From a virus (lineage: Duplodnaviria > Caudoviricetes), in IMG/VR virus record IMGVR_UViG_3300020264_000005, positions 30,961-94,960 of that record: a stretch of DNA of 64,000 bases. One strand, written 5' to 3'. The notes under the pieces were generated by a model that saw only the letters and a program-made list of their open reading frames with translations, did no database searches and was not told the DNA's origin. Shown here in pieces: positions 13,073 through 60,037 of this stretch (its first letter is position 1; every line of letters starts with the position of its first letter). Both the position numbers and the translations under genes were made by a program.

Positions 13073-13465
13073 ATGCCTTCCTTTCAGACATTTAAAGATC
13101 TGAGCATCACGTTCAAAAAACACCCTGTATCAGACGATCTGGTACAGGTGAAAGATAAGGCAGCTATCATTCAATCGATAACTGCCTTACTTTTGACGAA
13201 TAGGGGAGAAAGACCATTCAAACCAAACCTAGGGTCAGGCATTAGAGAGTCGTTATTTGAACCATTGGATTATGCCACTGGAGGTTTAATCAGAGGACAG
13301 GTTATTGATTGTATCAATAGATACGAACCAAGAATCGAATTAGATAATGTATCAGTTGAACCTGATGAATTAAACAATGGATACAACGTAGAAATCTTCT
13401 TTACTATTGTAGGAAGAGATGACGTACCAGAGGCAGTAGAATTCTTCTTAGAGCGTACACGATAA
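13073..13465 (+). CDS. g25: baseplate wedge subunit gp25
   Basis: LLTNRGERPFKPNLGS..INRYEPRI; late promoter ATAAATA at 13043-13049. Confidence 0.95.
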   Translation: MPSFQTFKDLSITFKKHPVSDDLVQVKDKAAIIQSITALLLTNRGERPFKPNLGSGIRESLFEPLDYATGGLIRGQVIDCINRYEPRIELDNVSVEPDELNNGYNVEIFFTIVGRDDVPEAVEFFLERTR

Positions 13466-15261
13466 TGCCTTATACTCAGGTTGCCAACTTAGATTTTGAA
13501 CAAATCAAAACAGCTCTTAAAGATTACTTAAGAGCACAGTCGGATTTTACTGACTATGACTTCGAGGGTTCTGCATTAGCGACCATCTTAGACACACTCG
13601 CTTATAATACCTATTATACGGCGTTTAACACTAATATGGTAGTCAATGAACTATTCATTGATTCTGCCACCTTGAGAGACAACGTAGTAGCGATTGCGAA
13701 GCAACTAGGGTACAGACCCAAGTCGAAGACCGCACCTACTGCTTATATCTCTTTTGATGTAAATTATAATCAACAAACAACAGACACAGAACTCCTGCTG
13801 AAGAAAGGAACTGGTTTTGTTGCTAACTATGACAATACTTTGTATCGTTATGTTGTATTGAACGATGCAAAGGCACAAGTATCAAATGGTGTTGCATCAT
13901 TCACTGACCTTCCTGTAAAAGAAGGTGCATTGATTACTGACACTTATACTATTAACGGTGCATCGAAGAACCAGAGATTTGTTCTCGATAACCCAAACAT
14001 CGATGCTAATACTGTTTCAGTAAAAGTATTCCCTACTGGTGGTTCATTCAACGAACCATATTTGGTTGCAGATAACATCTTGAATGTAGATGGCAACTCA
14101 AAAATCTTCTTCCTTGACGAGATCGAGGATGACAGATACGAAATCATCATGGGTGATGGCATTCTAGGTAAGAAACTAGAGAATGGTGCTGTCATGGAGG
14201 TGACTTATCTGGTCACTAATGGTCCTGCATCCAATAGTGTACGTACATTTGTCTTCAGCGGTGTCCTAGAGAACACACAAGGCATCACTCCTGCTGGTTT
14301 TAGCACTTCTATCACAAATGTAACACCTGCTGCTGGAGGCGAAGATCAGGAGACTACAGCGAAGATCAAGTTTAATGCTCCTAAGTCATACGGTGCTCAG
14401 GACAGAGCAGTGACTGTAGATGACTACGGTGCTATTGTACGTAATGTATATCCTGCTACTAGTGACATCATTGTATTTGGTGGTGAGGATCAAGAACCAC
14501 CAATGTATGGTAAGGTATTCATTTCATTGAAACCAAAGGATGCAGCGTACCTAACGTCTGTTACTAAGAAGCAAATCATTGCAGATTTGAAGAAGTATGT
14601 TGTTGCATCAGTAGAACCAGTCCTAATCGACCCTTCTATTCTGATCATCGAACTAAATAGCAAGATTTATTACAACAGTTTAATTACAGACAAGACACCT
14701 GCACAGATTAGAGATGCAGTAATTGGTTCTGTACAGTCATACCTTGACACATCTGACACAGAAAAGTTCAACGGTAAGTTTAGACATAGTAAAGTTGCTG
14801 GTGTTATTGACGATACAGATCGTTCAATCAACTCCAACCTTACTGATGTTACAATGAGAAAGGATTTCTATCCTCAACTCAATTCAACTTTCTATTATGA
14901 GATCTGTTTCCAGAATGCATTCGACCTAGAGTGTGATGAATCAGTCCTGTCGTCTACTGGTTTTAGAGTTACTGAGTACCCTAATTTCGATGTTTATATC
15001 GAAGACAGGGGTGGTAAAATTGTCCTATATAGACTAGACTCTTCTACTGGCGAAAAAGTAGTCCTAGACGATAATGTTGGGGATATTGATTATGAAAAAG
15101 GTGAACTTCAAATGTATGATTTGACTATCATTAAAGGTACATATTTCGATAATCGTATTTCAGTAAGAGTAAAGCCTAGGTCTAAAGACGTTAAGGCACT
15201 TCGTGAAGTTTACTTAGATGTAGACGTTGCCAATTCATCGTTCACTGCATACAAAGAGTAG
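13465..15261 (+). CDS. g6: baseplate wedge subunit gp6
   Basis: LDFEQIK..FTDYDFEGS..LAYNTYY; QDRAVTVDDY. Confidence 0.95.
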   Translation: MPYTQVANLDFEQIKTALKDYLRAQSDFTDYDFEGSALATILDTLAYNTYYTAFNTNMVVNELFIDSATLRDNVVAIAKQLGYRPKSKTAPTAYISFDVNYNQQTTDTELLLKKGTGFVANYDNTLYRYVVLNDAKAQVSNGVASFTDLPVKEGALITDTYTINGASKNQRFVLDNPNIDANTVSVKVFPTGGSFNEPYLVADNILNVDGNSKIFFLDEIEDDRYEIIMGDGILGKKLENGAVMEVTYLVTNGPASNSVRTFVFSGVLENTQGITPAGFSTSITNVTPAAGGEDQETTAKIKFNAPKSYGAQDRAVTVDDYGAIVRNVYPATSDIIVFGGEDQEPPMYGKVFISLKPKDAAYLTSVTKKQIIADLKKYVVASVEPVLIDPSILIIELNSKIYYNSLITDKTPAQIRDAVIGSVQSYLDTSDTEKFNGKFRHSKVAGVIDDTDRSINSNLTDVTMRKDFYPQLNSTFYYEICFQNAFDLECDESVLSSTGFRVTEYPNFDVYIEDRGGKIVLYRLDSSTGEKVVLDDNVGDIDYEKGELQMYDLTIIKGTYFDNRISVRVKPRSKDVKALREVYLDVDVANSSFTAYKE

Positions 15262-15265
15262 TTAA

Positions 15266-18200
15266 ATGACCGTCAAGACGAAGAGAATTTCAACTCTTAT
15301 TGAGACACAACTCCCAGAATTTATTACTACTGAGTATGAACTTTTCAGTAAGTTCCTACAGAAGTATTATGAAGCTCAGGAGGTACAGGGCGGTCCTTTA
15401 GATGTAATCAGCAATCTTCAGAAGTATGCTGATATTGACTACTATGAGAAGAATCTTCTCAAGCAAAATGATATTCTAGTATCTAATATTTCAGATACTG
15501 ACACGACCATTGTCCTGCAGGACGCTACTTCATTCCCTGCACAGAATGGTTATGTCAAAATTGATGATGAGATCATCTTTTATGACACTCGCACTGATAC
15601 AACTCTAGAAGGTTGTGTAAGAGGCGTTAGTGGTAATACTTCCCTAGGAGACCTATACGAAGGTTCTACCTTTGTCAGCACCAGTGCGGCAGCACATAGC
15701 GGCGGTAAGAAGGTACATAACATTAGTAACCTCTTCCTCTATGCATTCGTCAAGAATTTTGAGAGTCAGTATCTAGGTTCATTCCCCCAGAAGTACCTTA
15801 AGGGTGAAGTAGACAAGAGAACCCTGATCAAGAACATCCAGAAGTTCTACAAATCAAAGGGTACTACTGCTTCAATCAAGTTTATCTTCAATACTATTGT
15901 TGCCAAGGAGATTGACAACAAACCTGAAGTATTCAAACCAAGAGATTTTACATACAAGGCATCTGAGTCTGACTGGATCAACATCTATTCACTCAAGTGT
16001 AAGGTCATCTCTGGTGATCCAAAGAGTTTGATTGGTAAGGTTATCAGTCAGAGCATGCCTTTTGTTCAGGCAACTGTAGATAACGTCTTTGAAGATAGCA
16101 ATGCTGACGGCGAAAGAATTTACAATATTGTACTTGCACCAGAGACTGTAACTGGTAAGTTCGATATTTCCACTAAAACAAAACTAACTGCACCTCTATC
16201 TGATGCTGCTGGTGCTGGCGCTAGAATCAATGTTGCTTCCACCATGGGGTGGGACAAGTTAGGTTCTGTTCTTATTGGTGATGAAGTCATTGAATTCACT
16301 GACAAGAACGTATCTCAGTTTGTTATCTCTAAGAGAGGACCAGTTCCAGTAACTTTCCTAGCAGGTAAAGAGGTATACAAACCTTCCCTAATCATTGGTG
16401 AGGGTGTTACTCTACTTACTTTGGGTCTGGTGTACAACGTTGCACCTACGATGCAAGCACCACACTCAGCTGTTGGTGACAAAGTACAAGAGTCTGTTGC
16501 TGGTTTCCAAACTGCTGACCCACGTATTGTTGATATTAATACGAATCAGGTACGTTGGAACCTCAATAACTTAGGTCCAGTATCTGCAACCACCAATGCT
16601 AACATTCAATCTGCACTGAGTGGTGTATCGACTAACGTCTCTGCTATTCTAGAAGACGAGCAGTATTACTACATTGCTAGTTCTTCTTATCCTTCTTACA
16701 ACATTCTAGACATTCTAGAAGTTGACAAACCAGTACAGGATCAGAAGCAACTCAGAATTATTCGTAAAGAACCAATCTCAACGACTGAGATTTATAAGAC
16801 ACCCAACAGAGACGTTGGTATCCTCGTAAACGGTGTTCCCATCTTCGGTTACAAGGATCCTGAATCCATTCGTTTTGGTGTACTTGAGACTATCAAGGTT
16901 ACTGACAAAGGAAGAAACTACGCCAATCCACCTTTTGTGTTGATTGATGGTCTACCTGAAAGAGCAAGAGCATTCTTGATTGGTAATGTTGTTGATCGTA
17001 TCGAGGTAGCTACTACTGACATCTTCCCACAAACTCCAACAATTGAGATCACCTCTGGTAAAGGTGGTAAAGCAACTGCTGTTGTTACTGGTGGTGAAGT
17101 CACTAGTATTGTCATTGATGATGCAGGTAAGTATTATTCAACTCCTCCCAGAGTCGTAATTAGAGACTTGGCAGGTAAAGGACGCTTTGCTGAGTACACT
17201 ACTGAAGTTAACACCGCTGGTCAGATTACTGCTATCAACAAAGTTGCTGGTGGTACACTCTATACACAGAGCAACATTCAAGTTGACATCGTTGCTGTCG
17301 GTTCAGATGCTAAAGCAACACCTCTTCTCAAAGAATGGGTGAAGAACAGGTTTGAGAAGTACAAGGGTGTCATGGATACCCAGTATGGTTTCCTATTCCG
17401 TAATTACAACATTGTATTGGACAATGGTTACGGTCAACTAGGCAATCCAAAGAAACTTAGAGTTGCACTGGGTGATAACTTAGACAGTGCTGATTCAGAA
17501 CCAGCAACTAAGACTCACTCACCTATCATTGGTTTTGCTTATGATGGCAACCCAATCTATGGTCCATTTGGTTACAATGATCCTTTAGATGCAACATCAA
17601 CTCCTGTTAGAATGACATCTAGTTATTCTCTAGTTGGTGACAGGGATCGTGGTCCCAGTATTACAGAATATCCGTTAGGTGCATTCATCGACGACTATAA
17701 GTATAGTCATAGAAGTGGTTCATTGGATGAAAACAACGGACGATTTTGCGTTACCCCCGAATTTCCAAAGGGAACTTATGCTTATTTCCTTACTATTGAT
17801 AGCAATCAAGTACCGAAATTCCCGTATGTTCTAGGAGACAAATTCTACTCTCTACCTGTAGACAGTAACTATAACTCAAACATCAGTCAAGACGATATTC
17901 CTAAGAAGTCCAAGCGACTCAATGTTGCTGGCATGCAGGGTAACGGCGAAGGTCTAATTGCAGAAATTGGTGCAGTTGGCGCTGGTATCCTTGATAGTGT
18001 CGAGATTCAAGACTCACACGACAACTTCTCTATTAACAACAAACTATACTTTGATAACGTAGGAACCGAAGGAACCAGTGCAGAGGCATTAGTCTCATCT
18101 GTTACTGGTGAGAACGTTCAGTATCTTGAGTGTAAAGAAGATAGAGTTGTTAAACTGACAACTATCCAAAGTGCATACCTATTTGCTGATGACACTTTAA

Positions 18201-21200
18201 GACAACCACAATCAGGTGCTTCTGGTAGTATTGTTGGTACTGTCAAGGGAGATACTGTTATTGTTCTACGTAACGTCAATGGCACGTTCGACAATACAGG
18301 TACTTTCTCTGCAGACATCAAAACCTTTACTATCACTGTGGATCAGGATAGTAACTACACGATTGGTGCAGTTCTAAGACTGACTGATGGTGTCAATCCA
18401 CCATATGCAACTGGTGAAGTTCTAGAGTCTACCAGCAAGCAGAATACTGTTAAGATCAAGGTTCTCACTGGAGAATGGGTTGTCAATGAAGATTACTTCA
18501 TCCAGTCCAGCAATCTGTTCAACACGTCTGGTTCAAAAGTAGTCTCACTCGTATCAATGAGTGATGGACTAGAACCATTTGATGTAAACCAAAGTGTTGC
18601 TTTGGTTGAGACTGATGTGAATCATGGTCTTGCTATTGGTGACGAAGTAACTATTGATATCCGTCCTAACGACACAACTAAGACTAAGAACTATTATATC
18701 AGACAAAGACTGTATCAAACTGCAGTTGTTAGAGAACCAAACAATAAGAGTAGCATTTCATACAATGGTATTGGTAGATTTACCATTCTAAATGGTGGTG
18801 CTGACTATACAGAAGGAACATACACCAATGTTCCTCTTAAGAATGGATCAGGTACAGGAGCAACAGCAAATATCACTGTATCTGCAGAAGGCATTGTATC
18901 AAATGTCCAAATCACTTCTGGTGGAACAGATTATCAAAGAGGAGACTACCTCACTGTAGAAGATGACGAACTAGCAAGATCTGGTGCTTCTCAGAGCACT
19001 GCTAGATTGACGATGTATGTCGATCACTCTGGTGTATCGTTCAGTGCTGACTCTATTAGAGTTGCAGATCCAAAAGGTTTCTCTGTAAACGACAAACTGC
19101 AAGTTGGTAGTGAGATTATGCAGATCACTGCTATCAATGGCAATGATCTATCTGTAACTAGAGCACTAGAAGGAACAAAGAGAGTAGACCACTACAATGG
19201 TGGTATTATTACACTATACAAACCAAGTTATAACTTCGATGCTGGTTTCAAGGTTAGCAATACAACAGGTGGTGGAACCATTCTATCATATGATCGTGAT
19301 ACTCAAACTATCACTGTAATCTATGATTATGGTATTGACAAGATTGCTGCTGATGAACTTATCAACAGCACAACGTTCTTTGATTCTGGTGATCCAAGCA
19401 GACTAGTAACACTTGAGAGAGTATCTGATCTAGAATTTAAGTTTGAGTTCTCTGAAGATAATGAGAACTTCACTCCTAACCCAAATCTAGATTTACAGGA
19501 GTTCTACAGATATACATTTGATACATCACACCCTTCACTACTAGGAACTAACTTTGATCTAAGTCCAAGTAAGAGTTATAACCTCCTAACCTTAGAAAAA
19601 CTGAACAGTGCTGCATTGCCTGGTCAAGTTGGATCATTTACTGAGGTTAAATTTGGTTTTGGTCCTAGATTGGAAGAAAACAACTATGACAATAAAGTAG
19701 GCACGAATTTCACATACTTTTACTACTTTGATAGGAATAACAAGGTAAATTCTGAAGGTTCTTTCTTCAAAATTGTAAATGACCCTCTGCAGGGTACAAA
19801 GACGCTTTCTTACGTCACCCCTAATCGATTTGTATATGATGTACCTACAGAACCACTGTGGGATGGATCAGGTCAAATTACATATACTACCAGAGGACAA
19901 TTTGCTACTGGTAAAATTCATGAAATTGCCGTAACTAATTTTGGTGAGAACTACAAGAAGACTCCAAGAGTAATTGGTGTTGATCCAGCACAAGAATTCA
20001 GAGCAGAAGCAACTGTTCTCTATGATTCAGAAATTGGTGCTATTACTACAGTAAGACTTGACAACGTTGGTTCTAATTTCTCCAAACCTGCAGCTGTCAT
20101 CGTAGATGGTGATGGACAAGGTGCTCTATTTGATGTAACACAGAGAAATGGTAAGATCTTCTCTGTTACCATCAGAAGTATTGGTAAGAACTATTCTTAT
20201 GCACCTAAGATTAAGATTATTGAGACAGATACTAAACTGTTCCCAATGAGTTCTTCTATTGGTGTACCACAGAGTATCAATATTATTAGAAATGGTGGTG
20301 CATACCATTTAGATAAGACTGTTGCATCTAAACTGTCTTCTCAGACTGTTGTATCAATTGAAGTATCTGATAATATCAAATTCCAGACTGGTGAGAAAGT
20401 CACACAGACTGTAAATGGTGTAGAAGTTTTAAATGCTAAGATTTCAGAATTCAGACAAGGTTCAAACCTTGTAAAACTAAAAGATATTAATGGTATCGTT
20501 AGAGAAGGTGTAGAACTAAAAGGATTTGTATCTAAATCTACCGCAAAGGTAAAAGTAGTATTCGTTTCCAAGTTCAACGAAGAAATTACAACCTTCTTTG
20601 ATAATCTAGGTTACTATAACTCAGATAGAGGTAGACTTGGTACTGCTAATCAGAGATTGCTTGATAGTTACTTCTATCAGGACTATTCTTATGTTGTTAA
20701 GTCCAAGACTTCTATTGAAGAGTGGAGAGACCTTATTAAGTCTACCACACACCCTGCTGGTTTCCAACTATTCGGTCAGGTTGATATTGAGACTGATGCT
20801 CCAGTCGAAATGCCTAAGGAGCAGAACAAGTCTGACTCGTTCAGTATCATTCAACTATGGGATCCTGCGAAGAACAAGATTACAGTTGAAAGCACCAAGC
20901 AAGTAACAACTCAGTCAATCCAATCTGTTAGTGATTACAAACTGAGAACTGGTTCTGGTTCTGTTGCAACATCCGAATTCAACTTCAACGAAAGTCGTGC
21001 GTTTGAATTCAGGATCTACAACATGACGCCTGGTTTCTATGATGCAACTATCAATGCAGGAAATCCATGGTGGATGAAGAATCCATTCGATGGTTATTTT
21101 GATAACGATGGAAGATTGAAGGGTTCCGTTCAGTTCCAGATCAGGGACATGTTTGATAATCCATTCAATCCAGTAAATGCAGAGAGTTGCTTTGTTACTC

Positions 21201-24200
21201 TCGATGGTATTATTCAAGAACCACTCAGAGCATATACTATCAGTGGCGATAAACTTGTCTTTGCTCAACCACCTCTGGGTGATAATGAGAAACTAACTGG
21301 TCAAAATGTCAATGCTACGAGTTCTTACAATGGTGTTAAGTTCATTGGTAGAACCTTCTTCTTTAAGGATTCTCAGTACAATAACAGATACCTAAAAAAA
21401 GCGAGAAATATTTTCCAGCGTGGGGGTCTATGGATAGACGCTGCAAATCAAATCGAACAAAATAAAGAGTTTATTATTCAAGAATCTGTAGGGTATGGTA
21501 AGGAGACTTATCCATCCTTGGATTGGAGTACAAAACTCGATGATTACAGTTTAGACATCGGATATGCACTCGATGCATATGCACATGACATCAGATTTGG
21601 TGGAAATACCAAGACTGTTGATTATGCAAAGATTTTCCAGAAGTCAAAATATATTGCTGACTATAAAACTGAGTCCATCAACATCTTTGAGTATGCTAGA
21701 AAACTAGCAAACCTTGCTGTTAGAAATTGGGACCTGTCTCTACAGTCAGTTCAATATATTACTGGTTCTAAAGAGATGACTGTCGAAGATTCTTCTCGAT
21801 TGGTTGTCGGCATGCATGTCAGCTCTGGTCGTGGTTTCGCAATGGGAACCAAGATTGTATCGATTGACTCTTCGACAAAAATCACTCTTTCTGCACCTGC
21901 ACTTCAAAACTCTGGTGTAGGTGCTGGCGGTGCTCCAGATGGAACCACTAATCTAACTGGCACAACCAACGGAACTTTAAACCTACCAACAAACACTGGT
22001 GTTGTACCACTAGGAGATCAATTCTCTGTACAACCAGGCGATAGTTTGATTGTACCACTATCTTTCTCTGGTATTGAAAGTGCTACCTTCTACATGAGTG
22101 CAATCAACACTGGTACGTTTGTTGATGCTTCTAACCTCATCTTTGGTAATAAGCAATACATTCAAGAAGAGACTGTTGGTTGGGCAAAAGCAACGTACCC
22201 TAGTGTACCATGGAATGAGAATGAAGGCAAGTGCGTTAGAGACCTTGGATTCCTCATCGACAGAATTGTTTATCACCTCCGTTATGGTGGTAACGAAAAA
22301 GTAATTGAGTTTGCACAACTATATTGGACAAAGGCATCTTACCCTAACCAAGAACTATTGACTGGTATTGGTGACGAGAAAGATGAAACTCTAGCAGCAT
22401 TTAACTATGCTAAGGATCTCATGGTCCAAGCAATGAGAAATGTTCTTGGCGCTGGCACTTATACATCAGTTTCTCCATTCATTGATCCTGATGTTGCTGC
22501 TGACAGTGAGTTCCCATATTGTGTCGAAGTTGAGACTACACTCAACACTTATATTGATATTGTAGAAGACATCTTCAACAAAGGTGTTGGTGTTGTTGAA
22601 GTTACCAGAGAAAATCAGAATAAGGCAGGTAACTGGACTCCAATCACCACTTATTCCAATTACAATATTCTCCCTGATAGTCAACTACCATTCTACGAGT
22701 GTAACACTGTTGTATCTGCTATCGACAATCTCCATAGCAATCTCGAAGATACTATCAATGGTAGTGATGTTGATAAGACAATCCCCGACTTCATTGATGG
22801 TGAGAACAGAGAGTTCGATCTACTCTGGGATGATGGATCACCAGTTATTACCGAAGAAGATGAGAGATTCTTTGTAACTAGTAATGCTGTACTACAGCAG
22901 ACTAAGTTCAATGCTGATCATCCTGGCGGTGATTCATATCACATCGATAGAACAGTTGTACCAAACAGAATTGTATTCGATGTTGCACCTATCTGGGATC
23001 AAGATGCTGGTGCTAAGACTCTAGGTGAACCAACTGCAGTTGAGAAAGTCGCTATTCTTGGTGTTGGTAACTACAAGAGACTATCTATTGATAGCAATCT
23101 AGTTAACAACCAAAGAAGTGGTCCATTCATCATCTTGGATCTAGAAGATAACACTGTACAGAATATTGAGTCCAGAGATAACCTCTTGGTCTTTGTTGAT
23201 GGTGTTCTACAGAAGTATGGTACATCATATACTATCTCAGGTCCAAACATTTCATTTGAATTCCCAATTACGGAACAAATGAAGGTTGATATGAGATATC
23301 TCTATGGTAGAGATGTCGGACAGATCCTCAATCTTTATAATTACAACCCAGATCTGTATTATGCACAGGCAGTTGCATCATTTAGATGCACCAGCAATGT
23401 TGCTGAGTTTGTAAAAGGCGCATGGCAAGATATCTACACTGGTTATCCACTTCAGGTCTATCAAACCAGACCTAATAATACCAAGATGTGGATTGGTAAT
23501 GTTAACAATCTTCTCGTTGATGACTTGGGTGGTGGAGAAGCAGACATCACATTTGAAGTTAATGGTAACAAATCAGAATTGATGGATGCACCTGTTACTT
23601 TCTGTATTGCTAGAAAGTATGCATATGAGATCACACTAGACCTTGATTATGACAACTCATCTCTCGTTTATGAAAAGGATGAGTATGGTGGTTTGACTCT
23701 AAGAGGTAATGATCAAGCATGGAGAGGGACTATCATCAGAAAGTCCTACAAGAATCCATTTATTAACCTTTCTAACAACTCTAGAATCAAAGTAGATGGT
23801 GAAGATGGTTTCAGAAGAATCAAAGAACTTCCTTCTGTACTTAATTCTTCTGAAGAGAGAATTGGTGAGCAGGTTTCCAACTCCTACTATGGTTACGTTA
23901 ATGTAGAAGCATATAATGGTATAACAAGAGGCGAAGGTCTTGCAGTTGTTGCTAAAATTGAGAATGGTTCTGTTGTATCTCTAGAATGGAACCAGCGTAG
24001 TTATGATCCTATCACCCAACCAACAGCATATCAATATTATACACCACCTATTCTAAACTTTGTACCAAAGAATGGTCAAGGTGGCGGTGCAAGAGGTAAA
24101 GTTGTTGTCAGTAAGGGTCAAGTTCTCAGTGTAGAACTGACTGATGGTGGATCTGGTTACACTGAAGCACCTGACATTATTGTTGCTAGACAGTATCAGA

Positions 24201-26062
24201 TTCAGAAAGAGAATGACATTGGTGTATCTCTAATTGATCTAAGAGTTCAGCAGGAAGTAAAAGTACAGGGTCTTATCTCTAGTTCTACCATTGACTTGCT
24301 TGCTAATCAGGTTTCTGGTATCAATACTCTGTCTTCTATTCTATTCAGAAGTCCAGTTGACGAAGTTAAGGATATCACTTGCCACATCTGGCCTGCTGAT
24401 CAGCAAGTCAGTGAGGATCTAACTGGAGGAATTGTTGCTCCTCTACTTAAGATTGCTGAAGCAGCACAAGAGAATGTACCTGTTATCAACACATTCCACA
24501 ACTTCACTGAAATCAATGGATACATTGATATGGGTGAGATTGTTGACATCAGAACTGGTTCTAGTATCTACTACTTGGATGTTGATAGAGTTATCACATC
24601 TACTGTACAGTCTGAGATTCCTAATAATGCAATCAGCAACATCAACCACTATCAGAATGCTGCATTCCTCAACGTTCCTCTGGACATTGGCGATACCATT
24701 GCATACATTCCAGATACTGAGAAGTTCACTTCAAACGGATTCCTCCTCATTGGTGATGAAATTGTTAGATATCTCCGCAAGGGTTCTGATCGTTTCTTCA
24801 GTCTCCAGAGAGCACAGCAAGGAACTACCGAGAAGAACTGGAATGCTGGTACGTATCTAAGACAGATTCCTGATCCATCTGTATCTGTTGCATACGGTGG
24901 TATTGCTAAGGTTGAGTCTCAAGCAGTATCCGTTGAGATGGGTGGTATCGCAAGCGGTTTGGGCGATGGTGAACTCGGACAAGATAGAGTAAGACAGTCA
25001 CAAGTTCTTACTCCATCTGTAGCAAAACAGCGTGTTGAGCAACAAATCGAAGTTTCCGTAAGCAGAGACATCGCAGTTGACTCAATTTCCGCGCTTGAGA
25101 CTCAGGTTAAGTACAAACTTGAGACATTTGCGGTTAATGTTGTTCCAACTACACTACAGTATAACGCTACTGTCGCTACACAGCAAGTTCAGATACAATC
25201 CCTCAACACAATCCAAACTGTTACTACTAAGGTAGAAGCAGACATTCAGATCAGTGTTGATGTTGACTCACTCAAGAGTCTAGAATTCATCAGAAAGGTA
25301 ACTGTTCCTTCGGAATACACTGCTACCACTGAAGAAATCAAGCATAATGCAACTGTTGTTAGTGGCGAACTACAGAAGATTATTACCGAGATCTCTGTAT
25401 CACGTGAGGCACTAGAGTTACTGATTGTTCCACCTCCTTCTGGAGCAATCGATGGTTATGAAGAATCAGTATTCTTGACTGATCCTGTTGAGACAAGACT
25501 AAATGGATTCGTAGATCTTGATCCTAACACATATCCAGTCATCAAACGTGATGGTACTATCATCTACCCACTCAACTCTGTTGCTGGTGTAGGAACTGGA
25601 TACATCGGTAACTATGTTAAGACTAATGCTGGTCCTACTATCGGATCTTGGAACTATGTTGCATTTGACGATGGTACAGCAAATGTCTCTGGATTTACTC
25701 TGGAAGACTTGAATAGATTATATCCTGCTCTGACTATCAATGACTTTGTTGAAAGAGCAGACTCAAGCTTCACAAAAGCAGGTGATTACTTCAATCTTTC
25801 AGTACCATCCATTCAGAATCCACTAGCACTTTCTTCCTCCACACAACCAATTGGTACTGCTGGAGTAAATGCGCTAGATATTACAGTCAATAGTACCGTA
25901 AACTTCCCTGACGCTGGATACCTGTTCCACGCTGATGGAACGGACTCAGGAGTGATTGAGTACACTGGCAAGACTGCAACTACGTTTACTGGTTGTGTTC
26001 AATACAGGGGAAGCACTCAGGTTGGCAATGGTGCGGAAATCGTGCCGTTCACAATTGACTAA
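15266..26062 (+). CDS. g7: baseplate wedge initiator gp7-like giant protein (YHYH-like and phycobiliprotein-like inserted domains)
   Basis: Between g6 and g8; QLPEFI..FLQKYYE, LIKNIQKFYKSKGT, DSYFYQDYSYVVKS..HPAGFQLFG motifs. Confidence 0.85.
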   Translation: MTVKTKRISTLIETQLPEFITTEYELFSKFLQKYYEAQEVQGGPLDVISNLQKYADIDYYEKNLLKQNDILVSNISDTDTTIVLQDATSFPAQNGYVKIDDEIIFYDTRTDTTLEGCVRGVSGNTSLGDLYEGSTFVSTSAAAHSGGKKVHNISNLFLYAFVKNFESQYLGSFPQKYLKGEVDKRTLIKNIQKFYKSKGTTASIKFIFNTIVAKEIDNKPEVFKPRDFTYKASESDWINIYSLKCKVISGDPKSLIGKVISQSMPFVQATVDNVFEDSNADGERIYNIVLAPETVTGKFDISTKTKLTAPLSDAAGAGARINVASTMGWDKLGSVLIGDEVIEFTDKNVSQFVISKRGPVPVTFLAGKEVYKPSLIIGEGVTLLTLGLVYNVAPTMQAPHSAVGDKVQESVAGFQTADPRIVDINTNQVRWNLNNLGPVSATTNANIQSALSGVSTNVSAILEDEQYYYIASSSYPSYNILDILEVDKPVQDQKQLRIIRKEPISTTEIYKTPNRDVGILVNGVPIFGYKDPESIRFGVLETIKVTDKGRNYANPPFVLIDGLPERARAFLIGNVVDRIEVATTDIFPQTPTIEITSGKGGKATAVVTGGEVTSIVIDDAGKYYSTPPRVVIRDLAGKGRFAEYTTEVNTAGQITAINKVAGGTLYTQSNIQVDIVAVGSDAKATPLLKEWVKNRFEKYKGVMDTQYGFLFRNYNIVLDNGYGQLGNPKKLRVALGDNLDSADSEPATKTHSPIIGFAYDGNPIYGPFGYNDPLDATSTPVRMTSSYSLVGDRDRGPSITEYPLGAFIDDYKYSHRSGSLDENNGRFCVTPEFPKGTYAYFLTIDSNQVPKFPYVLGDKFYSLPVDSNYNSNISQDDIPKKSKRLNVAGMQGNGEGLIAEIGAVGAGILDSVEIQDSHDNFSINNKLYFDNVGTEGTSAEALVSSVTGENVQYLECKEDRVVKLTTIQSAYLFADDTLRQPQSGASGSIVGTVKGDTVIVLRNVNGTFDNTGTFSADIKTFTITVDQDSNYTIGAVLRLTDGVNPPYATGEVLESTSKQNTVKIKVLTGEWVVNEDYFIQSSNLFNTSGSKVVSLVSMSDGLEPFDVNQSVALVETDVNHGLAIGDEVTIDIRPNDTTKTKNYYIRQRLYQTAVVREPNNKSSISYNGIGRFTILNGGADYTEGTYTNVPLKNGSGTGATANITVSAEGIVSNVQITSGGTDYQRGDYLTVEDDELARSGASQSTARLTMYVDHSGVSFSADSIRVADPKGFSVNDKLQVGSEIMQITAINGNDLSVTRALEGTKRVDHYNGGIITLYKPSYNFDAGFKVSNTTGGGTILSYDRDTQTITVIYDYGIDKIAADELINSTTFFDSGDPSRLVTLERVSDLEFKFEFSEDNENFTPNPNLDLQEFYRYTFDTSHPSLLGTNFDLSPSKSYNLLTLEKLNSAALPGQVGSFTEVKFGFGPRLEENNYDNKVGTNFTYFYYFDRNNKVNSEGSFFKIVNDPLQGTKTLSYVTPNRFVYDVPTEPLWDGSGQITYTTRGQFATGKIHEIAVTNFGENYKKTPRVIGVDPAQEFRAEATVLYDSEIGAITTVRLDNVGSNFSKPAAVIVDGDGQGALFDVTQRNGKIFSVTIRSIGKNYSYAPKIKIIETDTKLFPMSSSIGVPQSINIIRNGGAYHLDKTVASKLSSQTVVSIEVSDNIKFQTGEKVTQTVNGVEVLNAKISEFRQGSNLVKLKDINGIVREGVELKGFVSKSTAKVKVVFVSKFNEEITTFFDNLGYYNSDRGRLGTANQRLLDSYFYQDYSYVVKSKTSIEEWRDLIKSTTHPAGFQLFGQVDIETDAPVEMPKEQNKSDSFSIIQLWDPAKNKITVESTKQVTTQSIQSVSDYKLRTGSGSVATSEFNFNESRAFEFRIYNMTPGFYDATINAGNPWWMKNPFDGYFDNDGRLKGSVQFQIRDMFDNPFNPVNAESCFVTLDGIIQEPLRAYTISGDKLVFAQPPLGDNEKLTGQNVNATSSYNGVKFIGRTFFFKDSQYNNRYLKKARNIFQRGGLWIDAANQIEQNKEFIIQESVGYGKETYPSLDWSTKLDDYSLDIGYALDAYAHDIRFGGNTKTVDYAKIFQKSKYIADYKTESINIFEYARKLANLAVRNWDLSLQSVQYITGSKEMTVEDSSRLVVGMHVSSGRGFAMGTKIVSIDSSTKITLSAPALQNSGVGAGGAPDGTTNLTGTTNGTLNLPTNTGVVPLGDQFSVQPGDSLIVPLSFSGIESATFYMSAINTGTFVDASNLIFGNKQYIQEETVGWAKATYPSVPWNENEGKCVRDLGFLIDRIVYHLRYGGNEKVIEFAQLYWTKASYPNQELLTGIGDEKDETLAAFNYAKDLMVQAMRNVLGAGTYTSVSPFIDPDVAADSEFPYCVEVETTLNTYIDIVEDIFNKGVGVVEVTRENQNKAGNWTPITTYSNYNILPDSQLPFYECNTVVSAIDNLHSNLEDTINGSDVDKTIPDFIDGENREFDLLWDDGSPVITEEDERFFVTSNAVLQQTKFNADHPGGDSYHIDRTVVPNRIVFDVAPIWDQDAGAKTLGEPTAVEKVAILGVGNYKRLSIDSNLVNNQRSGPFIILDLEDNTVQNIESRDNLLVFVDGVLQKYGTSYTISGPNISFEFPITEQMKVDMRYLYGRDVGQILNLYNYNPDLYYAQAVASFRCTSNVAEFVKGAWQDIYTGYPLQVYQTRPNNTKMWIGNVNNLLVDDLGGGEADITFEVNGNKSELMDAPVTFCIARKYAYEITLDLDYDNSSLVYEKDEYGGLTLRGNDQAWRGTIIRKSYKNPFINLSNNSRIKVDGEDGFRRIKELPSVLNSSEERIGEQVSNSYYGYVNVEAYNGITRGEGLAVVAKIENGSVVSLEWNQRSYDPITQPTAYQYYTPPILNFVPKNGQGGGARGKVVVSKGQVLSVELTDGGSGYTEAPDIIVARQYQIQKENDIGVSLIDLRVQQEVKVQGLISSSTIDLLANQVSGINTLSSILFRSPVDEVKDITCHIWPADQQVSEDLTGGIVAPLLKIAEAAQENVPVINTFHNFTEINGYIDMGEIVDIRTGSSIYYLDVDRVITSTVQSEIPNNAISNINHYQNAAFLNVPLDIGDTIAYIPDTEKFTSNGFLLIGDEIVRYLRKGSDRFFSLQRAQQGTTEKNWNAGTYLRQIPDPSVSVAYGGIAKVESQAVSVEMGGIASGLGDGELGQDRVRQSQVLTPSVAKQRVEQQIEVSVSRDIAVDSISALETQVKYKLETFAVNVVPTTLQYNATVATQQVQIQSLNTIQTVTTKVEADIQISVDVDSLKSLEFIRKVTVPSEYTATTEEIKHNATVVSGELQKIITEISVSREALELLIVPPPSGAIDGYEESVFLTDPVETRLNGFVDLDPNTYPVIKRDGTIIYPLNSVAGVGTGYIGNYVKTNAGPTIGSWNYVAFDDGTANVSGFTLEDLNRLYPALTINDFVERADSSFTKAGDYFNLSVPSIQNPLALSSSTQPIGTAGVNALDITVNSTVNFPDAGYLFHADGTDSGVIEYTGKTATTFTGCVQYRGSTQVGNGAEIVPFTID

Positions 26063-26113: not shown

Positions 26114-27922
26114 ATGGCTGCTATTATCTCAGATAAATTTAGAATTTTTAATGCGAAGCAATTCCTTGAATCGCTAACTGAAGGCGCTACCGATACTAGC
26201 GCCGAAAGAACAAGAATGTACTTCTTTGTGGGTCGCCCACAACCTTGGAAGGCATATCTCGAACTCTACGGACAAGCTGGAGGAAACTTCACAGTAGGCA
26301 ACGAAATTTACGTTGGTACTTATGGATCCACAGCATTCCGTGCCACTATTGCTGGAGTCCTAGATACCGCTCTTCTTCTTTCCGACGTTTTCCCAAATAC
26401 CACCTCTACTCCTTCTCTCGGTAGCACCATTCAGGAGACTGCTGACGGTGGTTCAACTACGACTGGTGTCACTGCCTCAACTGGTGTCTACCGTTATGCA
26501 ACTGAAGAGATTCCACCTCTTCCACTAGACAACCAGACTGAGAAACTAAACGTTTACGACGAGATCATCGCAGCAAAGCGTATCGGCAATGCATTCGCAA
26601 GAACTGTAATCCGCCGTTACAACTGGGACACTGTTGCTAACCCAAGATTCGACATGTGGAAGCCTGACTACTCCGCAACCCCTGCTGGTGGCGGTCAAGT
26701 CGGTAAGCAGACCGCAACTGGCGCTGACGCTATTGCTAATGCTAAGTTCTACGTAATGAACTCTGACTACGAAGTATTCAAGTGCCTCTATAATGGTGAA
26801 GGTCCTGGCAACCTTTCTGGTCAGGATGCTACCGAAGAACCAAAGACCTCACTTGGTAACTATAACTCATCAACTGGTCTCTACACTGAGACTTCTGGTG
26901 CTGGTTACATCTGGAAGTTCATGTACCAGATGCCAACCGATGACGTTCTGAGATTCCTTTCTTCAGACTTCATGCCAATCACCCTGTCAACCGCAGGTTC
27001 TACCCGTCAGGCAGTAGAAGGTATTGCAGTTGCTGGTTCACTTGACGTTGCTCTAATCGAGAACGCTGGTGCTAACCTACCTGCTTCACAGACTTTCTAC
27101 ACCAGTGTAAAGGGTGACGGTACAGGTGCTGTTGTTGCTATCACCACTGATGGTTCTGGCACCATGACCGCTGCATCGATGCAAGCACGTGGTTCAGGTT
27201 ATACCTATGCTAACGTACTACTCGGTAACGGCAACCTCTTCTCTGATGCTGGTTTGACGACTCCAGTTGGTACTCCTGCTAACGCAGTTGGTGCTATCGA
27301 GATCGTTCTTCCTCCTCAAGGTGGTCACGGTTCCGACCACGAACTAGAACTCAATGGTAAGCGTGTGATGACTAACATCCGCCTAACCTACGCAGAAGGT
27401 TCTGGTGACTTCCCTGTTGATAACGACTTCCGTAGAATCGGTATTATCAAGGATCCTCTTAACTACGGTACTACCACTCCTTGTACTGCTGACACCCGTT
27501 CAGGTCTCAAGGCAGTTAAGATCACTGGTGCAACCGCAGATTACATCCCTGACGAAGTAATCACCCAGACCGTAACTAACGGTACTGCAAAAGGCACCGT
27601 TGTTTCTTGGACCTTGGATCAGGGTTCATCAACCGCAGGTGTACTTAAGTACATCCAAACCGTTGATGCACACACCGATCAGGGTGTTGTAAGAGACTTC
27701 GAGAGCAATGGTTCTAACGCTATCTCTGGTGAGTCTTCCGCAGCAGCAGGTAACGTCGAAACTGGTTACGGCGGTACGCTTCTCGGTTCTACCTTCTCAT
27801 CAGGTCTTGCAAATCCTGAGATCGAACCTAACTCTGGTGACATCATCTATGTTGAGAACAGAAGACTAATCACCCGTGCTCCTGACCAGATTGAAGATAT
27901 CAAACTAGTCATCGAATTCTGA
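26114..27922 (+). CDS. g8: baseplate wedge subunit gp8
   Basis: MAAIISDKFRIFNA..FYVMNSDYEVFKCLYN..GYIWKFMY..QIEDIKLVIEF. Confidence 0.95.
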   Translation: MAAIISDKFRIFNAKQFLESLTEGATDTSAERTRMYFFVGRPQPWKAYLELYGQAGGNFTVGNEIYVGTYGSTAFRATIAGVLDTALLLSDVFPNTTSTPSLGSTIQETADGGSTTTGVTASTGVYRYATEEIPPLPLDNQTEKLNVYDEIIAAKRIGNAFARTVIRRYNWDTVANPRFDMWKPDYSATPAGGGQVGKQTATGADAIANAKFYVMNSDYEVFKCLYNGEGPGNLSGQDATEEPKTSLGNYNSSTGLYTETSGAGYIWKFMYQMPTDDVLRFLSSDFMPITLSTAGSTRQAVEGIAVAGSLDVALIENAGANLPASQTFYTSVKGDGTGAVVAITTDGSGTMTAASMQARGSGYTYANVLLGNGNLFSDAGLTTPVGTPANAVGAIEIVLPPQGGHGSDHELELNGKRVMTNIRLTYAEGSGDFPVDNDFRRIGIIKDPLNYGTTTPCTADTRSGLKAVKITGATADYIPDEVITQTVTNGTAKGTVVSWTLDQGSSTAGVLKYIQTVDAHTDQGVVRDFESNGSNAISGESSAAAGNVETGYGGTLLGSTFSSGLANPEIEPNSGDIIYVENRRLITRAPDQIEDIKLVIEF

Positions 27923-41702: not shown

Positions 41703-44700
41703 ATGAGTTTTAATATCAATTCCGACAAAGAGTTTATCAGGGGTGGCGATCCCAAACTCATCGGTGATAATGAACTTACAATCAGAGGTGGTACTGGATC
41801 ATCTGAGCGCGAAATCTTGCGTACTCAGCTTGACGAGACCACTGGATTACCACGTGTCGGTATTAACCGAACTGGTCAAAGAGTTAACAACATTAGCATC
41901 ACTACGCCAGGTGCTGGTTTCACCACACCACCTAGTGTTATTATTGGACCACCTAACGTAGCAGGTGGCATCCAAGCACTTGCGTCTGCCTTCATCTTTA
42001 ACGGTGAAGTCGTTAACATCGCTATCAATAATCCTGGCTCAGGATATACTGTCGCTCCCTCTGTAACAATTACTAGTGAAAGTGGTGTTGGTGCAACCGC
42101 AGAAGCATTCCTCGATACTGTTGACTTTGAACTTGACATCAACGGTGCTATTAGAACCTCTACGTCTATCATTTCTGACACGGCGAGAATTCTAAACCTC
42201 GACATTGACAACTTCATTACGCCTGACGCCAACTTCAGAGCACCATATCTGAAGAACTTCATGAACAACACTGGTATCCCTTGGGATGGCAATGTTATTA
42301 TTCAGGAAAATTCCTACAGATACTTTGGTGCTAACCTCTATCAGGCACTGAATACTGGTAAGACTGACGCAGACAAAGCTCCTACACACACTGATGGTAT
42401 TGAACTAAACGGAGAAGTTCAGTTCAGACACATCGGTTTCCGCGTTGTTGACGAGAATTCATTCGCTTATAATCAAACTGGCGATGATGGTATCTTCCCT
42501 CGCTCAGTAACTCCTCTACTTGGTGATAGATCAAACAAAATTGCAACTACAGAATACGTTCTGAATCTAGCAACGAATGACGTTGGTGGTCGTATTTACG
42601 TTTCACAGCAGATTGGTAGTGACGAGAACGATGGTCGCTCTGCTGTAAACCCAGTTAGAACAATTAAAAAAGCATGTCAGTTGGCATGGCAGACACCTGG
42701 CGTCAAAGAAACTGTTATTGTTTCTGGTGGTGATTATGTAGAAGATAACCCAATCTCTATCCCACCTGATGCATCCATTGTTGGTGATAACTTGCGTCTG
42801 GTAATTATCAGACCTGCCAACCCTGGCAAACACATCATGAAGTTCGGTGATAAGAACTACATCATTGGTGTTACTTATAGAGATAAAGTTGACTCCATTG
42901 GAGATCCAGTCTCCACGTGGGACTTTGCTATGGTCTTCGACGACAAGCAAAGAATTATTATCGACCAAGACACCAATGGAGACTTTGGTGTTAACTTCCC
43001 AGTTGGTCACCAAATCTTTGGTCCTGATCAGTTCCGTGTTGACTTCCAAGAGAACACTGGTCTCTCATCACTACAAACTGGTCTAGAAGTAGTTGGTGTT
43101 AACACTGGTTCTAGAGCAAAAATTATTGGTGTTAAATTTGACACTGAACTTGGTGCAAGTGCATACACAACTGGTGAACTCGACGTTACCCTGACTAGTG
43201 GTTCTTTCCTAGAGGGTGAGAGTTTCAACTATATTGTTACAGGTTCAGCAGGAACAGATCTTGGACTTACTGTAACTGAAACTGCTGGTGAGAACAAGAT
43301 TAAACTAACGGATAATCCATCTTCGGATATTCCACCAGGTACATATATCTACCTTGATGATACAGATGATATTGACTTCACTCAAGGTTTCTACGAAGTC
43401 AAAGAAATTGATGATGACAATGCTCCTAACTATTGGATCGTAGAAGTTGTACCTATTCTGAATGCTAGTACATGGGATTCAACCAGAACAGCAAATATCG
43501 ATCTTCTGTCAGCAAACATTGTTACAGAAACAGTTGATACTACTTCACTATCTTCAATTAGAGCAGAAGGTGAAGTTGTAAGTGTCGATGAAGATATTGT
43601 ATCACAACTACCTATTCAAAAGATTGATTTCTCTCTACAGGGAGATCCAAGCATTGCAACTGGTGGTTTCCAGAATGAGCAGTTTGGTAATGCAGAAGAT
43701 CTTGGTGGTATTGTAATCTTCACCAACGAACTGGTTGGTAGAGATAACTTCCACGACTTCAAAGAAGGTCAAGAAATTGAGATCTCTGGTCTTCCAACCT
43801 CTGCACCTGACCTATCATTCCTTAATGGTAAGCAAAGAATTTATAAAGTTCTAGAAGATGCTGATGGTCGTGCAAGACGTTTTGTTATTCCTAAGAAGTT
43901 TCCTGCTCTAACACAGGCAGACTTTGATCCTGGTCAAAATGCAACAGTAACTTCTTACTCCAAGTCAGTTACTCTATCACTACTCAACTCACCAAACACC
44001 TTCCCACTATCTACTCCTGTAGAAAGAAGGTTCCAAGATGCTTGTACTTTCTTACGTAACAACAGAGACTTCATTGCTGATGAAGTTGTAGGAAGAATCA
44101 ATGATGAATTTAAGACCACTCATTACTCAGTATATGATATTGGTGGTACTCCAACTGCATCATACACTCCATCTGATGTAGGATATGACCCAGCATCTGG
44201 TCTAGTTACATTCACTGTCAACAATCATGGATTGAATGATGGTGACGGTATCAGAATTGCTGATAATGGTATTGTGTTCACTTGTGCCATGGATGGTTAC
44301 AAGACTGAACACCCTGCACCACAACCACATCATTTCTCCAGTGGTAAGTCACTACCTATTCTGTCATCAACTACTAATACATTCACAGTTAATGTAGGAC
44401 AGACTCAACCAAACCAAACTTTCACTCCTTCTAACGCAGTATATGATCCATCAACTGGTGATTTAACTCTGGAGATTGGCACTCACAGTTTGTCTACTGG
44501 TGAGGGTATTGTATTTGAACCAAATTCACTGAAGTTCACTTGCAACATGGACGGTAACCAATCCGTCAAGTCATATCCACGTCCTGGCATTGACCCATAC
44601 GCTGGAAAGTCAGTACCTCTAACTGGAGTTACTGATACATCGATCACCATGAATGTTGGTGTATCGAGACCTAATCAATATTTCACTCCAACTGATGCAC

Positions 44701-59775: not shown

Positions 59776-60037
59776 TGTAATTATGGGTTCTAACGGGAAC
59801 CTAGTTTTTGATCCAGCAGAGATTACAATTTCTGCAGGAGATACAGTTCACTTTGAAAACAACATGCTGCCACCACACAATATTATTGTGGAGGGTCGCC
59901 CTGATCTATCCAGAGAGTCACTAATGTTTGCTCCTGGTGAGTCACAAGACATCACATTTGCAGATGCAGGTGACTATGAATACTGGTGTGGTCCTCATAA
60001 AGGTGCAGGCATGATCGGCACGGTACATGTAGAATGA
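59714..60037 (+). CDS. petE: plastocyanin
   Basis: Signal peptide AWA/V; PHN and YWCGPHKGAGM copper ligands. Confidence 0.95.
   Translation: MKILFAFLATLFLAAPAWAVDVIMGSNGNLVFDPAEITISAGDTVHFENNMLPPHNIIVEGRPDLSRESLMFAPGESQDITFADAGDYEYWCGPHKGAGMIGTVHVE

Follow-up and report, generated by a model that had tools for sequence, protein, structure and literature searches.

Phycobiliprotein-like globin modules in baseplate and fibre proteins of cyanophages and other aquatic phages, a candidate family of bilin-binding virion proteins

A nested globin-like module in a giant baseplate-position protein

The DNA analysed here (the window) is a stretch of 64,000 nucleotides, positions 30,961 to 94,960 of the 94,960-base IMG/VR virus record IMGVR_UViG_3300020264_000005, whose completeness is estimated at 49%. 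The nearest cultured relative of the window is Synechococcus phage ACG-2014e (Kyanoviridae), with about 65% nucleotide identity and an identical gene layout. In the gp7 position of its T4-like baseplate block the window encodes a giant virion structural protein of 3598 amino acids (aa), in which an earlier note, made from the letters and translations only, had recognised two copies of a helical module resembling phycobiliproteins (PBPs), and from which it had suggested a pigmented or light-sensing baseplate. The peptide strings that it quoted are all found in frame +1 of window positions 21431-22760, inside this open reading frame (ORF, 15266-26062), and the three cysteine codons lie where it had put them, at 22232, 22520 and 22700 (residues C2323, C2419 and C2479). 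The duplication of the module is confirmed by a direct comparison of copies A and B, which share 35% identity over 108 aa (BLASTP, E 8e-22), and a hidden Markov model (HMM) of the module matches copy A at 21425-21763 (E 1e-29). The same HMM detects the module again in a 3889-aa fibre-like ORF at 41703-53372, with matches at 45636-46055 (E 3e-21) and 46059-46448 (E 1e-27) and partial ones at 44028-44129 and 48012-48305. The features are as follows, with model residues referring to a predicted structure of a 487-aa region described below.

15266 to 26062, plus strand: giant virion structural protein at the gp7 position of the T4-like baseplate block, ORF of 3598 aa
21428 to 21721, plus strand: copy A, N-terminal four helices of a predicted PBP-type globin domain (model helices 17-114), with a degenerate helix-E motif (Tyr/Leu for Cys/Arg)
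21731 to 22093, plus strand: beta-rich insert and Gly/Thr-rich linker in the G-H loop of copy A (model strands, residues 118-238)
22109 to 22582, plus strand: copy B, predicted complete PBP-type globin domain (helices B, E, F', F/G and H), inserted in copy A (model residues 244-401)
22232 to 22243, plus strand: C-V-R-D, putative Cys84-type bilin-attachment triad of copy B (C2323, R2325, D2326), aligned to PBP Cys84-Arg86-Asp87
22520 to 22522, plus strand: Cys2419 at the N-terminus of the last helix of copy B (model residue 381), on beta-Cys153 of phycocyanin (PC) or beta-Cys158 of phycoerythrin (PE) if the helix is gapless
22700 to 22756, plus strand: predicted H (terminal) helix of copy A, which lies beyond copy B (model helix 441-459) and starts with Cys2479 at the beta-Cys153 position
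45636 to 46448, plus strand: two further module copies in the 3889-aa fibre-like ORF 41703-53372, from the module HMM
13073 to 13465: gp25 homologue, upstream of the giant ORF
13465 to 15261: gp6 homologue, immediately upstream of the giant ORF
26114 to 27922: gp8 homologue, downstream of the giant ORF

The giant ORF stands between gp6 and gp8, as does T4-type gp7, and it matches phrog_4406 ('virion structural protein', E 0) as well as PHROG families annotated as 'baseplate wedge subunit' (E 3e-208 and 1.7e-52). These two traits make up its likeness to the T4 gp7 baseplate wedge protein, from which it differs in being 3.5 times as long and in giving a Pfam Baseplate_wedge match (PF23786) at merely E 0.062, under the cut-off of that family. 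To our knowledge, T4 gp7 is without a PBP-like domain. The protein also contains a YHYH domain (PF14240, E 4.4e-30) at window positions 17504-17815 (ORF residues 747-850). Elsewhere in the window, at 59786-60034, lies a petE gene for a plastocyanin-type copper protein (PF00127, E 5e-20), and its peptide patterns have no confirmed relative among 185,579 species genomes, which points to a diverged phage form.

Sequence evidence for homology to phycobiliproteins

In a phmmer search of the raw 443-aa stretch that holds the modules against 177,635 PDB sequences, C-phycocyanin alpha came first, unprompted, and was aligned over Cys84, at a non-significant E-value of 0.79. Searched with hmmscan against Pfam, the stretch gave no match, and the whole ORF gave only the YHYH domain and the weak Baseplate_wedge hit, with no PBP match. 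Profile tests were significant, and the resemblance proposed in the earlier note therefore goes beyond chance. Copy B, compared with 1.84 billion representative proteins, obtained 896 matches at E<1e-3, and many of these relatives are proteins of 2-6 kaa with up to about 35 copies each. One such multi-copy relative (P0014) matches Pfam PF00502 (Phycobilisome) with 30.4 bits (family cut-off 22.2; E 4.4e-7), the best stretch covering positions 33-138 of the 155 in the profile. A profile of 82 module copies run against the same PDB sequences returned phycocyanin alpha in 16 of 19 matches, the best at E 0.0076 and aligned on Cys84. We also collected 26 genuine PBPs from three cyanobacterial genomes, using a 60-aa phycocyanin fragment as query, and aligned them with the 82 modules by hhalign, which gave a probability of 92.5% and an E-value of 4.8e-7 over 104 columns, module positions 5-109 falling on PBP positions 38-150. 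The register of this alignment places C43, R45, D46 and N15 of the module on Cys84, Arg86, Asp87 and Asn47 of PBPs. Membership of the PF00502 family is thus found at the level of the module family (P0014; hhalign), with the window's own copies scoring lower; one of the weak matches of a six-frame PF00502 scan lies at window ~46068-46211, in the fibre-like ORF.

Predicted structure

AlphaFold2 was run without templates on copy B alone and on the 487-aa region, both models reaching a pLDDT of 82 and a pTM of 0.73. The top ~50 Foldseek matches in the PDB were all PBPs, and a VIA-align comparison of the copy B model with 48,161 chains ranked phycoerythrin 5aqd_M first (Z 15.2, rmsd 2.5 Å over 146 aa), followed by allophycocyanin (APC; Z 13.6) and the bilin domain of ApcE (4xxi_A, Z 12.9), other globin-fold sensors having Z 10-12. 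PBP beta chains can be laid on the 487-aa model in two ways. In the first, model residues 15..460 correspond to PBP residues 34..172 with merely 129 aligned residues (rmsd 1.8-2.1 Å), from which it follows that predicted copy A consists of helices 17-114, which pair with PC-beta from residue 34 on, together with helix 441-459. In the second, they fall on copy B at residues 244..400, matched to PE or PC beta 34-172/177 with Z 15-16 and an rmsd of 2.1 Å over 130-135 aa. Taken over both copies, the predicted globin-like helix core (B, E, F', F, G, H) aligns with Z 15-16.6 and an rmsd of 1.8-2.7 Å over 129-146 residues.

The models therefore agree with the PBP-type globin fold that the earlier note had proposed and, together with the beta-chain alignments, with its placing of the last helix of copy A after copy B. 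As modelled, the G-H loop of copy A accommodates both the beta-rich insert (118-238) and the entire copy B, and the insert segment is conserved among gp7 orthologues. Since the structural matches begin at PBP residue 31-34, the N-terminal X-Y hairpin is absent, and each predicted domain is a PBP globin core running from helix B to helix H.

Could all this be a generic four- to six-helix repeat in which the motif arose by chance, with AlphaFold copying the PBP fold from that motif? The low single-sequence scores (phmmer against the PDB, no Pfam match for the 443-aa stretch) and Foldseek E-values above 0.01 would fit such a convergence or artefact, as would the high Z-scores that helical models can reach by chance. 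We nevertheless consider it hardly credible, since independent profile methods agree across ~105 columns, beyond the motif alone, helices B through H are matched with an rmsd of ~2 Å over 129-146 residues, PBPs outrank all other globins among the 48,161 chains, and the second cysteine falls on beta-153 in both copies. Homology of the module to phycobiliproteins is well supported, and we regard it as very probable.

Conservation of the C-x-R-D triad and of a second cysteine

In the PBP motif CXRD the cysteine carries the bilin, and arginine and aspartate form hydrogen bonds with it (Rockwell et al. 2023, PMC10151467). The earlier note had seen bilin-site cysteines in both modules; of the two, only copy B has a Cys84-type site, copy A of this phage having Tyr/Leu for Cys/Arg. 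In the most divergent gp7 orthologue found (L018), copy A retains K-C-x-R-D. Family-wide counts show that the Cys84-type cysteine is located in a conserved triad: over 1375 copies the residues are C in 97%, R in 96% and D in 99%. To guard against ascertainment bias the HMM was rebuilt with the motif columns masked, which yielded 1523 copies with C 94.7%, R 93.7% and D 97.7%, the full triad being present in 1399 of them (~92%). Cysteine is otherwise rare in these proteins (0.35%), and of the 2883 cysteines in the 150 top-ranking family members (425,392 residues in total) 1406 (49%) belong to a C-x-R-D. The three cysteines of the window protein are likewise conserved in 38 non-redundant gp7 orthologues from viral metagenomes, where Cys and Arg of the copy B triad reach at least 90% and its Asp 100%, and where both terminal cysteines, including the E-C pair at the terminal helix of copy A, are invariant.

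The position of the terminal cysteines can be counted from the end of the structural alignments. Cys153 of CpcB lies nineteen residues ahead of its last residue, 172, and the last aligned pairs are 460=172 for copy A and 400=172 (R-PC beta) or 400=177 (PE beta) for copy B; provided that the final helix is gapless, C2479 and C2419 would accordingly both fall on beta-Cys153 (beta-Cys158 in PE), in line with the position to which the earlier note had assigned the terminal cysteine. A global hhalign comparison of copy B with a mixed beta/APC alignment did not usefully align the last helix, so that this mapping rests on structural alignment ranges and residue counting. The second cysteine is less general than the triad: of 250 copies from the wider family that are long enough to include the last helix, 40% have it.

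Other positions set the module apart. Asp57 (97%), Tyr73 (98%) and Thr95 (82%) are conserved to a degree resembling the triad, but none of the invariant PBP residues corresponds to them (position 57 is His in copy B of the window phage), and the invariant Arg93 of PBPs is replaced by Asp52 in ~80% of modules. In PBPs, the Asp13-Arg93 pair belongs to the alpha-beta interface and to monomer formation. Neither this pair nor the X-Y hairpin is found in the module, which is not a free subunit of (alpha-beta)3 discs but an internal domain of a 3598-aa baseplate protein and of fibre proteins of 2-6 kaa. Lacking the hairpin, the free subunit and the phycobilisome context, the module is not a strict phycobiliprotein.

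The conserved site might in principle hold something other than a bilin. Cys43, Asp46 and Asp57 are on the same side of helix E (spacing i, i+3, i+14), which would suit a metal ion or a host surface ligand, and the oxidising medium surrounding virion proteins would allow the cysteine to form inter-chain disulfides that cross-link fibres in oxidising water. Such a role seems very improbable to us: the triad is the exact bilin motif of PBPs and of the BBAG proteins (bilin biosynthesis-associated globins) discussed below, in the homologous helix and the same register, the single cysteine per module has no intramodule partner, and such a role would not account for the heme oxygenase and bilin reductase genes that accompany module arrays, as described below.

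Distribution and tandem arrays

Cyanophages are the only cultured phages in which the module was found. Three tblastn searches of 50,697 phage genomes with diverged module queries gave 259, 118 and 203 records, all of them Synechococcus or Prochlorococcus phages except one named just 'Marine', and the genes matched in cultured cyanophages are gp7-like ones and those for tail fibres or a 'short tail fibre'. A search of 301 cyanobacterial genomes with the module profile gave no credible match. Tandem 108-aa arrays occur in many IMG/VR contigs, and uncultured large aquatic phages without psbA carry 7-25 copies; the repeat periodicity in multi-copy proteins is 108-150 aa. Judged from these searches, the module family appears to be large and phage-only, with 1 to ~35 copies per protein.

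The hosts of the multi-copy contigs, as far as neighbouring genes can tell, are ambiguous. Neighbours on contig L019 have Microcystis phage Mel-JY01 and Flavobacterium phages as their nearest cultured relatives, those on L020 point to Methylophilales and Prochlorococcus phages, and those on L021 to Caulobacter phage tail domains. On L021 the gene at 108-1250, upstream of a 22-copy array gene, has an N-terminal half 38% identical to tail proteins of Caulobacter/Brevundimonas jumbo phages, so that some of the phages with arrays may be neither T4-like nor cyanophages.

In protein P0003 (locus L019), ~45-aa units trail each block of 3-7 tandem 108-aa modules (residues ~1090-1360 and ~1800-2090). 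They consist of a short strand and a helix of the type S-F-x-x-V-x-x-I-I-x-x-G and resemble the last helix of the module, without its Cys. A strict one-to-one 'Russian-doll' nesting for the 108-aa arrays was considered and rejected, the count of trailing helix-like units differing from the repeat count.

With arrays of this kind, the main rival to bilin binding is a structural exaptation without pigment, in which an ancestral cyanophage captured a PBP or BBAG gene, the globin core came to serve solely as a rigid helical spacer of baseplate and fibre proteins, and C-x-R-D was kept because it had been recruited to packing or inter-module contact. Up to ~35 repeats per protein at a periodicity of 108-150 aa look like the building of a rod, the absent X-Y hairpin and the change of Arg93 to Asp imply that PBP-type assembly was lost, and further invariant residues that PBPs are not known to share (D57 97%, Y73 98%) indicate new constraints; copy A of the window protein, moreover, has lost Cys and Arg and is still conserved. 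Against this, packing hardly accounts for a single unpaired cysteine retained in ~95% of ~1,500 copies that have diverged to 20-30% identity, nor for the likewise retained neighbours Arg and Asp, which in PBPs contact only the bilin (PMC10151467). Cys is otherwise scarce in these virion proteins (0.35% outside the motif). The gene content of the phages, described next, bears on this exaptation from both sides, and altogether we hold it to be possible, if somewhat unlikely.

Co-occurrence with bilin-synthesis genes

The co-occurrence of the module with bilin genes, proposed as a check in the earlier note, came out divided: array phages do carry a heme oxygenase and a bilin reductase, but P-SSM2 and the Pelagibacter phage Mosig have bilin genes and no detectable module. 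Adjacent genes for heme oxygenase (HO, PF01126) and ferredoxin-dependent bilin reductase (FDBR, PF05996), both above Pfam cut-offs, were found in three of three complete and one of two partial array records, and psbA was absent from the five largest array-bearing IMG/VR records. For the reverse test 49 viral records with the same FDBR type were collected; 12 of these carry 7-25 module copies and, among the records that are at least 90% complete, five of six carry 13-25. None of the tested FDBR-positive, module-bearing records has psbA. In the fibre ORFs of bilin-gene phages nearly all cysteines belong to the triad (24/27, 12/12, 13/16 and 15/19). That array phages without psbA possess the complete heme-to-bilin pathway speaks against a pigment-free spacer, and the bilin genes of P-SSM2 and Mosig, in phages without the module, speak for it.

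The HO-FDBR cassette lies ~120 kb from the fibre gene in four positive records. A search for FDBR in 45 fragmentary array-bearing records gave 0 matches, which is uninformative because no fragment reaches ~120 kb from the fibre gene. Genes for lyases are scarce: a CpeT-type lyase occurs in one of five complete array-bearing records and CpeS in none of the five, which fits self-attachment. A CpeT-type gene (PF06206, E 5e-22) is located at G361:C1:218192-218758, in a complete 271-kb psbA-less phage with a 14-copy array. As the earlier note had said, the window has no lyase gene, and none was found in the whole 95-kb record either, nor were FDBR and heme oxygenase genes (cpeT, FDBR and heme oxygenase searched; record 49% complete). 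The purpose of phage HO-FDBR cassettes has been called 'still enigmatic', with BBAG-like acceptors mentioned just as a possibility (PMC11480375, 2024), and our literature search gave no paper connecting bilin-binding globins with phage structural proteins.

Light-dependent adsorption

Adsorption in the dark is reported for P-SSM2 but not for P-HM1 or P-HM2, which fail to adsorb without light (Liu et al., PMC6628666), and light-dependent adsorption of S-PM2 was described by Jia et al. 2010, as cited by Liu et al. (PMC6628666). In our searches P-HM2 has 5 modules in two giant ORFs, P-HM1 has the module in its gp7-like gene, S-PM2 has several copies and P-SSM2 none. Module presence follows the light-adsorption phenotype in the three phages compared, an agreement that is anecdotal.

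A phage branch of bilin-binding globins?

We favour, with a probability of roughly 0.55, the interpretation that the modules form a phage-specific branch of bilin-binding globins, incorporated in proteins of the baseplate and the fibres, and that their triad cysteine probably carries a chromophore. Of the pigmented or light-sensing baseplate suggested in the earlier note, the structural half held in every computational test proposed for it, and the functional half is a proposal that draws on motif conservation and on the presence of HO and bilin reductase genes in phages with the module. Bilin binding by the module, read from its sequence, seems to us slightly better than an even chance. The triad cysteine of copy B would form a thioether to a linear tetrapyrrole (phycoerythrobilin, phycocyanobilin or biliverdin) while virions are being assembled in the infected cell, and the beta-153-type cysteines of both copies may likewise bind a bilin. 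Attachment could be self-catalysed, as in BBAGs and ApcE, or could proceed via a host or phage lyase, and the baseplate periphery and fibres would then bear covalently bound pigment. Its likeliest uses might be a light-responsive conformational change of fibre or baseplate, which would account for light-dependent adsorption, or a stabilising effect of the bound bilin on an extracellular helical domain. The more far-reaching version, in which bilins on PBP-derived modules act as a virion light sensor that gates adsorption and in which the modules are the missing acceptor for phage heme oxygenase, PebS/PcyA/PcyX and CpeT, appears unlikely to us as a whole.

Several observations weigh against the favoured interpretation. 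Attachment is wholly deduced from sequence and gene context, and the co-occurrence counts are confounded by shared ancestry, coming from few independent lineages and carrying no phylogenetic correction. Neither P-SSM2, which according to the literature has bilin genes, nor Mosig with its cassette of ferrochelatase, HO and FDBR (no module at E<=0.01) has a detectable module, and the FDBR-positive record G377 (92% complete) is module-negative too. PF00502 matches the window's own copies at only E 0.003-0.0065 in the six-frame scan and does not match P0003; as it also misses the module arrays of G304/G306, its silence on Mosig and on other module-negative records is uninformative. On the structural side, the Foldseek E-values are just 0.02-0.09, a Z of ~13 is often reached by chance for helical models, AlphaFold may have been steered toward the PBP fold by the shared motif, and the tandem form, with its 108 aa, falls short of the 129 residues aligned to the PBP core, so that many copies may lack helix H. 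BBAGs are photo-inert in vitro, which argues against a simple photoswitch (PMC10151467). We know of no report of coloured cyanophage preparations.

In Mosig itself (MT647606.1, 39650-43977; L366) the genes for ferrochelatase, four 2OG-Fe(II) oxygenases, heme oxygenase and a PcyA-like reductase stand in a row, adjoining neck genes. The host of Mosig is a heterotrophic SAR11 bacterium.

Comparison with known systems

PBP subunits (PF00502; C-phycocyanin, phycoerythrin beta) share with the module the globin core from B to H, the C-x-R-D in helix E in the same register, the equivalents of Asn47 and Gly102 and, in the case of beta subunits, a second cysteine at the start of helix H, where these bind their second bilin. 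They differ in possessing the X-Y hairpin and Arg93 (Asp in the module), identity being just 12-20%, and in being free proteins of 160-180 aa, whereas the module is single, nested or tandem inside virion proteins of 2-6 kaa and is phage-encoded, with none found in the 301 cyanobacterial genomes.

A further parallel is offered by BBAG-1/3, distant PBP paralogues with a CXRD bilin motif that attach bilins without lyases and are genomically associated with heme oxygenase and FDBR (Rockwell, Martin and Lagarias 2023, PMC10151467). Like the module they are PBP paralogues outside the phycobilisome, and the phage arrays, too, co-occur with HO and FDBR, mostly without a lyase. BBAGs, however, are small proteins of cells, with genes that cluster with those for V4R, Fe-S or B12 proteins and adjoin HO and FDBR, whereas the module is part of a virion protein and the phage cassette is ~120 kb away; the comparison made here is with the published description of BBAGs. 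The PB domain of ApcE (LCM) is likewise of PBP type and forms part of a large structural protein with several domains (Z 12.9 with 4xxi_A), although ApcE has a single PB domain followed by linker REP domains and is located in the phycobilisome core. ApcE attaches its bilin autocatalytically, at a cysteine outside the CXRD position.

Phage hemO-pcyX/pcyA (and alaS) cassettes, reportedly studied by Ledermann et al. in 2016, resemble the adjacent HO and FDBR pair that array-bearing uncultured phages carry, without psbA. Work on such cassettes dealt with the enzymes, without settling which protein accepts the bilin (PMC11480375). The difference here is that a phage-encoded candidate acceptor is proposed, with Mosig having the cassette and not the module.

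Significance

Several cyanomyoviruses adsorb only in light, and a bilin-binding domain on baseplate and fibres would be a concrete candidate on the phage side. Phages that probably do not infect phycobilisome-bearing hosts carry HO and bilin reductase genes for a purpose described as 'still enigmatic' (PMC11480375), and complete genomes of such bilin-gene phages encode fibre proteins with 13-25 PBP-like modules in which nearly every cysteine is the bilin-motif cysteine. If the pigment reading were refuted, the modules would still be a clear case of a phycobiliprotein-type fold reused as a structural repeat. If it is true, they would represent the first pigmented virion structural protein, as far as we know, and a host light-harvesting fold rebuilt into phage hardware, a new branch of bilin-binding globins that might also provide modular fluorescent tags.

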